From NCBI GenBank assembly GCA_021463865.1, contig JAJTXY010000018.1, positions 1,971-65,970 on the forward strand: a stretch of DNA of 64,000 nt. The letters are read 5' to 3'. Below, one piece after another: positions 35,298-37,151 of the stretch. The translations under genes were made by a program, and so were the position numbers. This stretch comes from Anaerolineae bacterium. GTDB lineage: Bacteria; Chloroflexota; Anaerolineae; Aggregatilineales; J027. Each line of letters begins with the position of its first letter. Positions within the stretch are counted from its first letter, which is position 1. Below the pieces are notes generated by a model that ran no database searches, was not told where the DNA came from, and saw only the letters and a program-made list of their open reading frames with translations.

Positions 35298-37151
35298 TTA
35301 TTCCAGCGGGGCAAAGACGCCATACTCGGCCACATTTTCAGGGGTGATGAGAATGCAGTCAATGGATTGTTTTTCTTCTTCAGGTAGTTCGCCTGTTTGA
35401 ATGTAGATGCTTGCCAAATTCACAGCAATTTCGGAGAAGTTGGCAACGGGTTGCAAGACAGTCGCTTGAATCGTGCCTTGACGAATGGCATCCATCACGT
35501 CCGGGCTGCCATCGAATCCCACCACGATTACGTCGGTCATGCCTGCCGCCTGCAATGCCGCCGCCGCACCCAACGCCATCGTGTCATTACCTGAAATCAC
35601 ACCCTTGATGTCCGGATTGGCCTGAATGATCGTCTCCATGACATCAAACGCTTCGGTCTGGCTCCAGTTGGCCGTTTGCTGCGCCACCAGTTCCAGATCA
35701 GGATAGTCGGCAATCACGTCGTTGTAACCCTGTGAGCGGATGGCTGCATTGGTGTCGGTTTCACGACCCAGCAACTCCACATACTTGCCTTCACCACCCA
35801 TCAAGCGCACGAATTCTTCACCACCGAGCACCGCGCCTTGATAGTTGTTGGACACCAACTGCACTGCTGCCACACCTGTCTCATTGATCTCACGGTCAAT
35901 CAAGAAGGTCGGAATCCCGGCATCTTTGGCCCGCTGAATCGGCGCAATCGAGGCATCCGCTCCAGCGTTGTCCAGAATGATCGCCGCCGCTCCCTGTGAA
36001 ATCGCTACGTCAAAATGCTGATCTTGCAGGTTCGGGTCGTCGTCATGAATCAGCACGAGGGTGGTGTAACCGAGTTCTTCAGCACGGGCCTGTGCAATAT
36101 CGGCTTCGGCTTTGAAGAAGGGATTATCATGTGAGGGCGTGATAATCACAATCAATTCGCCATTGCCCATCGGCACTTCGGGTTCTTGTAGCGGGGCAAA
36201 GACGCCATACTCATCCACGTTTTCGGGGGTGATGAGAATGCAGTCAATGGATTGTTTTTCTTCTTCAGGTAGTTCGCCTGTTTGAATGTAGGTATCAGCG
36301 AGATCAACGGCGATTTCGGAGAAGTTGGCGACGGGTTGGAGGACTGTGGCGGCAATCGTGCCTTGACGAATGGCATCCATCACGTCCGGGCTGCCATCGA
36401 ATCCCACCACGATCACGTCCGTCATGCCTGCCGCTTGTAGAGCAGCAGCAGCACCCAACGCCATCGTGTCATTACCTGAAATCACACCCTTGATGTCTGG
36501 GTTGGCTTGAATGATGGTCTCCATCACATCAAACGCTTCGGTCTGGCTCCAATTGGCTGTTTGTTGGGCCACCAGTTCCAGATCAGGATAGTCGGCAATC
36601 ACGTCGTTGTAACCCTGTGAACGAATCGCCGCATTCGTGTCAGTCTCACGTCCCAGCAGTTCGACATATTTGCCTTCGCCACCCATCAAGCGCACGAATT
36701 CTTCACCACCCAGCACTGCGCCTTGATAGTTGTTGGACACCAACTGCACTGCTGCCACACCGGTCTCATTGATCTCACGGTCAATCAAGAAGGTCGGAAT
36801 CCCGGCATCCTTAGCACGCTGAATTGGCGCAATCGAGGCATCTGCGCCGGCATTGTCTAGAATGATCGCCGCCGCTCCCTGCGAAATCGCTACGTCAAAA
36901 TGCTGATCTTGCAGATTCGGGTCGTCGTCATGGATTAACACGAGTGTCCGATAGCCCAATTCCTCGGCACGGGCCTGTGCGATGTCGGCTTCGGCTTTGA
37001 AGAACGGATTATCATGTGAGGGTGTGATAATCACAATCAATGGCGCTTCGTCTTGGGCCTTAAGCGTATTTCCGTTCGGGGTAAGCCCACCCAGAACAAT
37101 CACCGCTAAAATGAGCAGTTTGACTAATTTAAACCAACTTCTCTTATTCAT
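35298..37151 (-). CDS. sugar ABC transporter substrate-binding protein with two tandem near-identical RbsB-like modules
   Basis: Probable start is [22 protein letters not shown] (ATG 37151), giving a signal/anchor sequence. Two complete periplasmic-binding modules follow, each starting '[22 protein letters not shown]' and ending '[14 protein letters not shown]'. Confidence 0.85.
35301..37040. repeat. in-frame tandem duplication, two copies offset by 885 bp (35301-36155 and 36186-37040)
   Basis: Direct comparison: 'gcggggcaaagacgccatactc' occurs at 35306 and 36191. Alignable sequence ends at '...gataatcacaatcaa' at 36155 and 37040. The copies differ at scattered, mostly synonymous positions. 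Confidence 0.9.

Follow-up and report, generated by a model that had tools for sequence, protein, structure and literature searches.

Concerted evolution of two near-identical binding modules within one reading frame of an RbsB-type binding protein from Chloroflexota

Why should the substrate-binding protein of an ATP-binding cassette (ABC) importer carry two almost identical binding modules in one chain, and what has kept these modules alike? The question is raised by a gene in a 64,000-nucleotide stretch of an Anaerolineae bacterium (GenBank assembly GCA_021463865.1, contig JAJTXY010000018.1, positions 1,971 to 65,970), hereafter the window, to which coordinates refer unless another locus is named. 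A preliminary description made from the sequence had read the gene as two copies, 35301–36155 and 36186–37040, offset by 885 bp (295 codons), and an ungapped comparison of the 285-residue modules confirmed exactly this offset. The gene lies on the minus strand at 35298–37151, comprises 617 codons between an ATG at 37151 and a TAA at 35298–35300, and has a Shine–Dalgarno-like GGAAAGG about 8 nt upstream of its start. P0008 is 100% identical to its product over 617 amino acids. The parts of the gene are as follows.

35298–37151, minus strand: two-module substrate-binding protein gene (617 amino acids plus stop), assigned by translation and by two Pfam Peripla_BP_4 matches (372 bits)
37056–37151, minus strand: predicted Sec signal peptide (residues 1–32), read from the sequence and modelled as a helix by AlphaFold2 (AF2)
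36186–37040, minus strand: binding module 1 (residues 38–322), 67% identity and 1.4 Å root-mean-square deviation (r.m.s.d.) to 4RY0
36156–36185, minus strand: flexible linker of 10 residues (323–332), with a clade-conserved PMGNGE end and a predicted local distance difference test (pLDDT) score below 50 at residues 322–325
35301–36155, minus strand: binding module 2 (residues 333–617), with which the protein ends

The two copies are 89.8% identical (768 of 855 nt, without gaps) and constitute the sole long direct repeat that a repeat search detected in the window, a pattern beyond chance origin. The linker is indeed short, as first described, although the 11 residues originally assigned to it included the last residue of module 1. 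Differences between the copies fall mostly at third codon positions (71 of 87, with 11 and 5 at the first and second), in line with the preliminary description, which had counted about six residue differences where there are seven (R68T, A267Q, D283N, D286S, T287I, D313A and Q322E). At the protein level, the modules are thus 97.5% identical. Using the Nei–Gojobori method, we obtained a nonsynonymous divergence (dN) of 0.021, a synonymous divergence (dS) of 0.50 and a dN/dS of 0.041. Far from a ratio near 1 with disrupted binding-site residues, the contact motifs are intact in both modules, and both are under strong purifying selection.

Profile, motif and model evidence identifies the product as an exported CUT2/RbsB-type (type I periplasmic) binding protein with two complete modules. 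Peripla_BP_4 (PF13407) matched with 372.4 bits against a cut-off of 35.1 over two stretches, residues 39–292 and the second module. The RbsB equivalog model NF007936 scored 293 bits, below its cut-off of 337, so the protein is RbsB-like but is not the ribose orthologue. An AF2 model built with 18 homologues as input contained two confident modules (pLDDT of about 90) joined by a disordered linker, with a predicted template modelling score of 0.51, suggesting that the modules are arranged like beads on a string. Each module superimposes on Protein Data Bank entry 4RY0 (Rhizobium etli RHE_PF00037) with a template modelling (TM) score of 0.96, an r.m.s.d. of 1.4 Å and 67% identity over 282–285 residues (E = 2 × 10−121); TM scores to Thermotoga maritima and Escherichia coli RbsB were 0.86–0.92, and none of the solved chains compared spans both modules. 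The motifs DNPFF, DRE, R177, NW, GNDT, FDGS and LQP do not vary in either module among 18 diverse homologues, and 4RY0 has them in identical form. The same is true of residues N48, F50, F51, D124, R125, R177, W201, N227, D252 and Q272 and their equivalents in module 2. These motifs and residues, which we take to be the sugar contacts, were mapped to E. coli RbsB by motif and not by a computed alignment.

The amino terminus has a positively charged start of 11 residues, a hydrophobic core of 12 residues and the stretch TPNGNTLKA, followed by QDEAP; the AF2 model places a helix at residues 4–20, followed by a disordered stretch. A lipobox cysteine was sought in the amino terminus and was absent. 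Signal peptides of homologues end likewise, in A-Q-[DE], and we infer that the signal peptide is cleaved.

Multi-module architecture is general in this family. All 120 of the best homologues have two (107) or three (13) modules, and those that carry a name are from Chloroflexota. The preliminary description, which had considered a two-headed protein of this class rare, was mistaken on this point, as near-identical tandems are also found in about 19 other RbsB-like subfamilies. In a scan of loci covering one genome per species, all multi-module loci were from Chloroflexota (Anaerolineae, Aggregatilineales, Thermoflexus and Ardenticatenaceae), and homologues from Alphaproteobacteria, 62–70% identical, were single-module. 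Judging by this distribution, the two- or three-module format appears to be an old, conserved trait of the Chloroflexota family.

This breadth bears on whether the repeat could be an assembly artefact, that is, a single-copy gene written twice or two strain variants joined. Tandem repeats longer than the reads are hard for short-read assemblers, and some Chloroflexota loci have one module (L028, L030–L036 and L039), so that metagenome bins cannot always be trusted for copy number. In the window, however, 87 differing sites let reads separate the copies, and the copies are joined in frame by a linker whose motif is conserved in the clade. Over 100 independent protein clusters share the architecture, which also recurs on a 1.45-Mb contig (L084), in metagenome bins from Microflora Danica (MFD; L006, L013 and, with three modules, L014), whose ‘contig_NNNN’ names suggest long-read assembly, and in the cultured isolate Aggregatilinea lenta (L087). 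We therefore regard an artefact as extremely improbable. With a dS of 0.50 and the same architecture in independent assemblies, the initial judgement that the repeat is neither an artefact nor a very recent duplicate stands.

Could the second module instead be neutral, a redundant copy awaiting decay or deletion? Near-identical tandem repeats arise easily, and the tree has single-module genes scattered among the tandem ones. Nevertheless, dN/dS is 0.04 over a dS of 0.5 in the window and 0.02–0.12 in other diverged pairs, neither module contains a stop, a frameshift or a lost binding residue across the family, and the architecture has been kept across lineages only about 60% identical, with both styles of anchoring and, in several lineages, with three modules. 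Neutral duplication is thus very unlikely. With both modules intact and constrained, the preliminary reading of a functional two-headed protein is upheld.

We examined the evolution of the modules by comparing them within and between proteins. Modules of one protein are 88–100% identical, with about 20 clusters at 100%, and homologous proteins are 63–97% identical to the window protein. In a neighbour-joining tree, the modules of one protein are sisters almost everywhere, and positional orthology, in which module 1 groups with module 1, is found only among close relatives. Across loci, the dS between modules of one protein spans 0.005 to 1.06, and most dN/dS values lie in the range 0.02–0.3. 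Comparison with the two closest relatives used for dS, L083 and L084, gave the following values.

Window against L083, every operon gene including both modules, in any pairing: dS 0.8–1.0
Window against L084, binding-protein modules: dS about 1.4
Window against L084, other operon genes: dS about 2.8 or saturated
Between the two window modules: dS 0.50
Between the two L083 modules: dS 0.24
Between the two L084 modules: dS 0.05

Within-protein dS is lower than dS between lineages, and therefore each lineage homogenized its modules after the lineages had separated. The modules of L083 and L084 share tracts without a single difference, of 144 and 208 codons, respectively, with diverged sequence on both sides (P < 2 × 10−4), and the differences between the window modules are significantly clustered (P = 6 × 10−4). 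Because such tracts end on both sides, they favour gene conversion over a single unequal crossover. Taken together, these comparisons reveal concerted evolution in which intragenic gene conversion has repeatedly acted between the 885-bp direct repeats. By the dS values, the last homogenization in the window lineage would date roughly half-way back to its split from L083. The window differences are mostly synonymous because this event was old and both modules have been under purifying selection from then on. Of the earlier proposal that purifying selection preserved a duplicate, selection therefore survives, while a single old duplication gives way to modules re-homogenized by conversion.

Gain and loss of units probably also occur, because genes with one, two and three modules are intermingled in the tree. 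This mixing would also suit homogenization mainly by cycles of unequal crossing-over, from two modules to three and back or from two to one with re-duplication, and linkers 1 and 2 are near-identical in three-module proteins (P0006 and P0013 among them), as unit duplication predicts. However, the internal identical tracts of L083 and L084 are bounded on both sides by diverged sequence and need two exchange points; each step from one to two modules requires a new illegitimate junction, yet the PMGNGE junction is common; and some of the single-module loci may be collapsed assemblies. We consider it unlikely that such cycles, rather than conversion, were the main route. In many homologues, the linker end xPMGNGE also precedes module 1, and the duplicated unit is therefore the whole mature protein, with a junction common to the clade. 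An internal start at the linker methionine was considered as a candidate and dropped: it lacks a Shine–Dalgarno sequence, and homologues have this motif after the signal peptide as well.

Bacterial concerted evolution is familiar from tufA/tufB and rRNA operons, in which paralogues within a genome are more alike than orthologues between genomes. The window family shares with these the mosaic of identical tracts and homogenization lineage by lineage. It differs from them in that the exchanging units are two or three ligand-binding modules in one reading frame, 30 nt apart, and in that a small module-specific island persists.

This island accounts for the position of the window substitutions, which cluster near the carboxy-terminal end of the module, as the preliminary description had observed; five of the seven lie within its last 56 residues. 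The cluster is in part a conversion-resistant, module-specific island common across the family. Its two copies in the window are as follows.

36255–36329, minus strand: divergence island of module 1 (residues 275–299, including D286-T287), with D-T common to module 1 of the window, L083 and L084
35370–35444, minus strand: divergence island of module 2 (residues 570–594, including S581-I582), with S-I in the window, S-V in L083 and H-V in L084

In L084, the modules differ at 8 nt within the 25-codon island, at none in the 137 codons before it and at 1 in the 23 codons after it. In the window, L083, L084 and A. lenta, residue 286 is D in module 1, and its equivalent in module 2 is S or H, with I, V or T as the next residue; the D versus S/H difference is older than the split of these four. 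Residues 286 and 287 lie in the last long helix of the AF2 model (274–291). The direction of the difference was consistent in the counts below, which come from proteins that are not phylogenetically independent.

Position 286, upstream D and terminal H: 8 proteins, reverse 0
Position 286, upstream D and terminal S: 6 proteins, reverse 0
Position 286, D, D and H in three modules: 3 proteins, reverse 0
Position 287, upstream polar and terminal hydrophobic: 20 proteins, reverse 2
Position 316 (lipoprotein clade), upstream K, E or Q and terminal T: 23 proteins, reverse 1

Such a pattern could reflect modules that have sub-functionalized in the manner of SBD1 and SBD2 of GlnPQ, either differing in affinity or with one module docking while the other captures and hands over, the island being the functional difference. 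In favour of this are the 17 proteins with the change at position 286, none reversed, the directional changes at 287 and, in another clade, 316, the L084 island and the age of the D versus H/S difference. On the other hand, the known ligand-contact motifs are identical in both modules. The modules are 100% identical in about 20 clusters, and many members have D/D, H/H or S/S at 286, so the family can do without the asymmetry. Moreover, a patch that has diverged can withstand conversion passively, since heteroduplex tracts stop at mismatches, and the lack of phylogenetic independence reduces the weight of the counts. We accordingly think sub-functionalization unlikely and treat functional asymmetry between the modules as a minority possibility, although the sequences leave room for two modules that may not be fully equivalent.

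The genes around the binding-protein gene suggest what the protein transports. They lie on one strand in the order SorC regulator, DUF2291, ATPase, permease, binding protein, mutarotase, split transketolase, FGGY kinase and TIM-barrel protein, and Chloroflexota relatives have this operon around their tandem genes as well. The neighbouring genes are listed with their similarity to the D-apiose cluster of E. coli.

40527–41483, minus strand: SorC/DeoR-type sugar-binding regulator (PF04198), 42% identical to the E. coli cluster regulator
39877–40587, minus strand: DUF2291 lipoprotein with lipobox LLSC (PF10054), with a counterpart in the E. coli apiose cluster
38325–39908, minus strand: RbsA-type fused double ABC ATPase (PF00005 twice), 52% identical to the E. 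coli cluster ATPase
37262–38323, minus strand: RbsC-type ABC permease (PF02653, BPD_transp_2), a separate open reading frame 110 nt upstream of the binding-protein gene, 55% identical to the E. coli apiose-cluster permease
34726–35145, minus strand: RbsD/FucU-type mutarotase (PF05025)
32915–34707, minus strand: split transketolase by Pfam, with an N-terminal subunit at 33871–34707 and a C-terminal subunit at 32915–33874, 49% and 38% identical to E. coli AptA and AptB
31440–32918, minus strand: FGGY sugar kinase by Pfam, 36% identical to E. coli AplK
30439–31413, minus strand: xylose-isomerase-like TIM-barrel protein (PF01261), a candidate apiose isomerase

The true start of the ATPase probably lies slightly downstream of the listed one; its L083 orthologue has 515 amino acids. 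Compared with the E. coli SE15 apiose-cluster set (binding protein, DUF2291, ATPase, permease, aplK, regulator, aptA and aptB), the window proteins are 24–55% identical. The E. coli SE15 D-apiose cluster (ECSF_RS02670–02715), as delineated in PMC13001218, supports growth on apiose according to that study. The window gene set matches that of the D-apiose cluster (MetaCyc PWY-8089; E. coli SE15 and Pectobacterium carotovorum), with an isomerase-like TIM-barrel gene as candidate counterpart of Pectobacterium apsI. The TIM-barrel gene is absent near the binding-protein gene in most relatives. The E. coli cluster differs in gene order and in its binding protein, which is single-module, has 311 amino acids and is 43% identical to that of the window; the window operon in turn adds the RbsD/FucU mutarotase. 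By gene content, the operon looks like one for D-apiose utilization through the transketolase pathway.

Single-module orthologues from Alphaproteobacteria, represented by 4RY0 and 5IBQ (R. etli RHE_PF00037), have the same fold and identical sugar-contact motifs, and 4RY0-type operons likewise encode DUF2291, an RbsA-type ATPase and an RbsC-type permease. We take 5IBQ to be the R. etli protein with apiose bound. The alphaproteobacterial proteins have one module and reside in the periplasm of two-membrane bacteria, in contrast to the two modules per chain of the window protein and the three of some relatives, and most of their loci, unlike the window, have no transketolase genes nearby. D-apiose or a close relative is the likely substrate, because of the 67% identity to 4RY0 and the E. 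coli-like operon content. The DUF2291 lipoprotein gene (39877–40587 in the window, 14342–14962 in L082) accompanies this type of transporter in Chloroflexota, E. coli and Alphaproteobacteria; we know of no role for DUF2291 in uptake.

Directly after the binding-protein stop codon (35146–35297, minus strand), the sequence can form two strong RNA hairpins with stems of 16 and 13 bp. The minimum free energy of this region is −60.1 kcal mol−1, compared with −37.6 ± 3.9 for shuffled sequences (z = −5.8). The region has no T-tract, no Rfam match was found in the window, and a scan for promoters and terminators gave matches no more frequent than in shuffled sequence. The hairpins may stabilize the mRNA or terminate transcription in part, raising expression of the binding protein above that of the downstream genes.

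The explanation that we favour, and consider probable, is that of a binding protein with two equivalent modules, a trait of Chloroflexota, homogenized by conversion and purifying selection and working within an apiose-like operon. The tandem protein would serve the RbsA/RbsC-type importer encoded just upstream, with each module binding one sugar molecule and either module able to dock on the translocator. With two or three heads, each exported chain would offer more binding sites and keep loaded modules at high local concentration near the translocator. We infer this multivalent advantage, like binding and docking by each module, and the logic of the benefit is borrowed from the tandem domains of GlnPQ.

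Those domains fold and bind independently on a linker of 14 residues (PMC8025302). GlnPQ of Lactococcus lactis and other Gram-positive bacteria resembles the window protein in having two modules in series with a short flexible linker (14 versus 10 amino acids), and by analogy it is a likely model for how the window protein works. It differs in that its domains are fused to the membrane subunit, whereas the window permease is a separate gene and the binding protein has its own signal peptide. GlnPQ domains also belong to another fold class with amino-acid ligands, and differ in specificity and affinity, whereas the window modules are 97.5% identical and homogenized by conversion; this identity and the identical contact motifs argue against different ligands for the two.

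Several points weigh against the explanation that we favour. The window itself contains no long conversion tract, only the clustering of differences. At positions 286 and 287, and at 316 in another clade, the residue changes consistently in one direction from upstream to terminal modules. Binding and docking by both modules and the benefit of multivalency are predictions, and D-apiose as the ligand is deduced from 67% identity to 4RY0 and from operon content. Finally, the signal peptide looks cleavable and has no lipobox, which leaves retention at a single-membrane cell surface unexplained; Chloroflexota are increasingly regarded as single-membrane, according to a preprint (bioRxiv 10.1101/2025.08.19.671072).

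A bolder version, to which we give a low probability, is that multi-headed proteins with near-identical modules are an adaptive design of Chloroflexota across several sugar-transporter subfamilies, with selection both favouring homogenization and protecting the patch at 286/287 (316 in another clade). If so, every module would fit the same ligand and translocator, and labour would be divided along the chain, for example between capture and hand-over on the one hand and docking on the other.

In every comparison, no other protein of the operon was as well conserved as the binding protein. Between the window and L084, the binding protein is 96% identical, the ATPase 73% and the permease 84%; against Alphaproteobacteria, the values are 68–70% for the binding protein and 50–56% for the ATPase. 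The reverse order is expected of ABC importers. Codon bias within the operon is strongest in the binding-protein gene (effective number of codons, 43.2), and high expression or gene transfer could explain the conservation of its product. Recent horizontal transfer of the gene was considered; with a dS against L084 that is still 1.4 and the strongest codon bias, it is neither supported nor excluded.

Family members differ in how they are exported and in how many modules they carry. In one style of export, a long tether rich in Pro, Ala and Glu comes after a lipobox cysteine; in the other, that of the window, the signal peptide ends in A-Q-[DE]. Three-module versions (925–957 amino acids) are found in L012 (Ardenticatenaceae), L014, P0001–P0007, P0012–P0014 and P0016, and are mostly lipoproteins with Pro/Ala/Glu-rich tethers. 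Pairwise dS between three modules is 0.07–0.18 in L014 and 0.69–0.79 in L012. In a lipoprotein clade (P0004–P0006, P0016, P0088 and relatives), a conserved cysteine occurs in the linkers (TGSTEPCV...) and in the C-terminal tail (NG[KN]TSCP), with another at the module end (..NACQY..), which suggests disulfides that would fix the linker or tail. P0062 (936 amino acids) is a three-module homologue with its middle module replaced by about 200 Arg/Gly/Gln-rich residues, and this region looks like a frameshifted module, through either a sequencing error or a decaying copy.

The single-module Chloroflexota loci L028, L030–L036 and L039 nest among tandem genes. The module of L032 is 98% identical to those of the tandem L018, whose own copies are 99.9% identical in DNA; these single-module loci may be real copy losses or collapsed short-read assemblies. 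L038 and L053, from marine bins of Alphaproteobacteria, encode single-module proteins that fall inside the Chloroflexota clade on a long branch, with transketolase genes 55–65% identical to those of the window, a placement that may be due to transfer between phyla. The Joint Genome Institute (JGI) labels many homologues erythritol-binding protein EryG.

An exhaustive profile search, in which the window family falls under one representative at 50% identity, extended the picture to other subfamilies. Among the best 150 matches considered were about 25 other two-module RbsB-like proteins of 570–720 residues, 25–35% identical to the query. In 19 of these the modules are 60–100% identical (at least 83% in 17 of the 19), and in the other 6 they are anciently diverged, at 27–39% identity. 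Examples of other-subfamily tandems with modules 83–100% identical include P0123, P0150, P0157, P0188, P0217 and P0234. At L085 (6001–7791) and L086 (6001–7911), within-protein dS is about 0.03, and all differences are confined to the 3′ end of the module. One of the tandem proteins of the allose-like subfamily is named Anaerolineae, and its single-module relatives are from Clostridia. Other fusions were also seen: in P0288 and P0299 of the allose-like subfamily (about 805 amino acids), the binding domain is fused to an ABC ATPase (PF00005), and in P0389–P0391 and P0394 of Rhodococcus/Prescottella (630–664 amino acids), it is fused to a permease (PF02653).

In the literature searched, free homo-tandem binding proteins were not described, and only fused domains of the GlnPQ/OpuA type were found. 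Two- and three-headed sugar-binding proteins thus form a family that is widespread in Chloroflexota and apparently undescribed. Such genes also carry a warning, as short-read assemblies may collapse them and annotation pipelines call them ordinary ribose or erythritol binding proteins.

These proteins constitute a clean bacterial case of concerted evolution inside one reading frame, covering all stages from recently homogenized copies (dS of 0.005) to long-separated ones (dS of about 1). The affinity and capacity of an ABC importer are determined by its binding protein, and the sole well-studied multi-site design that we know of is GlnPQ, with two fused domains that differ in specificity. The Chloroflexota family offers a natural series of one, two and three near-identical heads, free or lipid-anchored, across many lineages and several sugar subfamilies. 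With such matched natural variants, the benefit of an extra identical binding site per transporter becomes testable.

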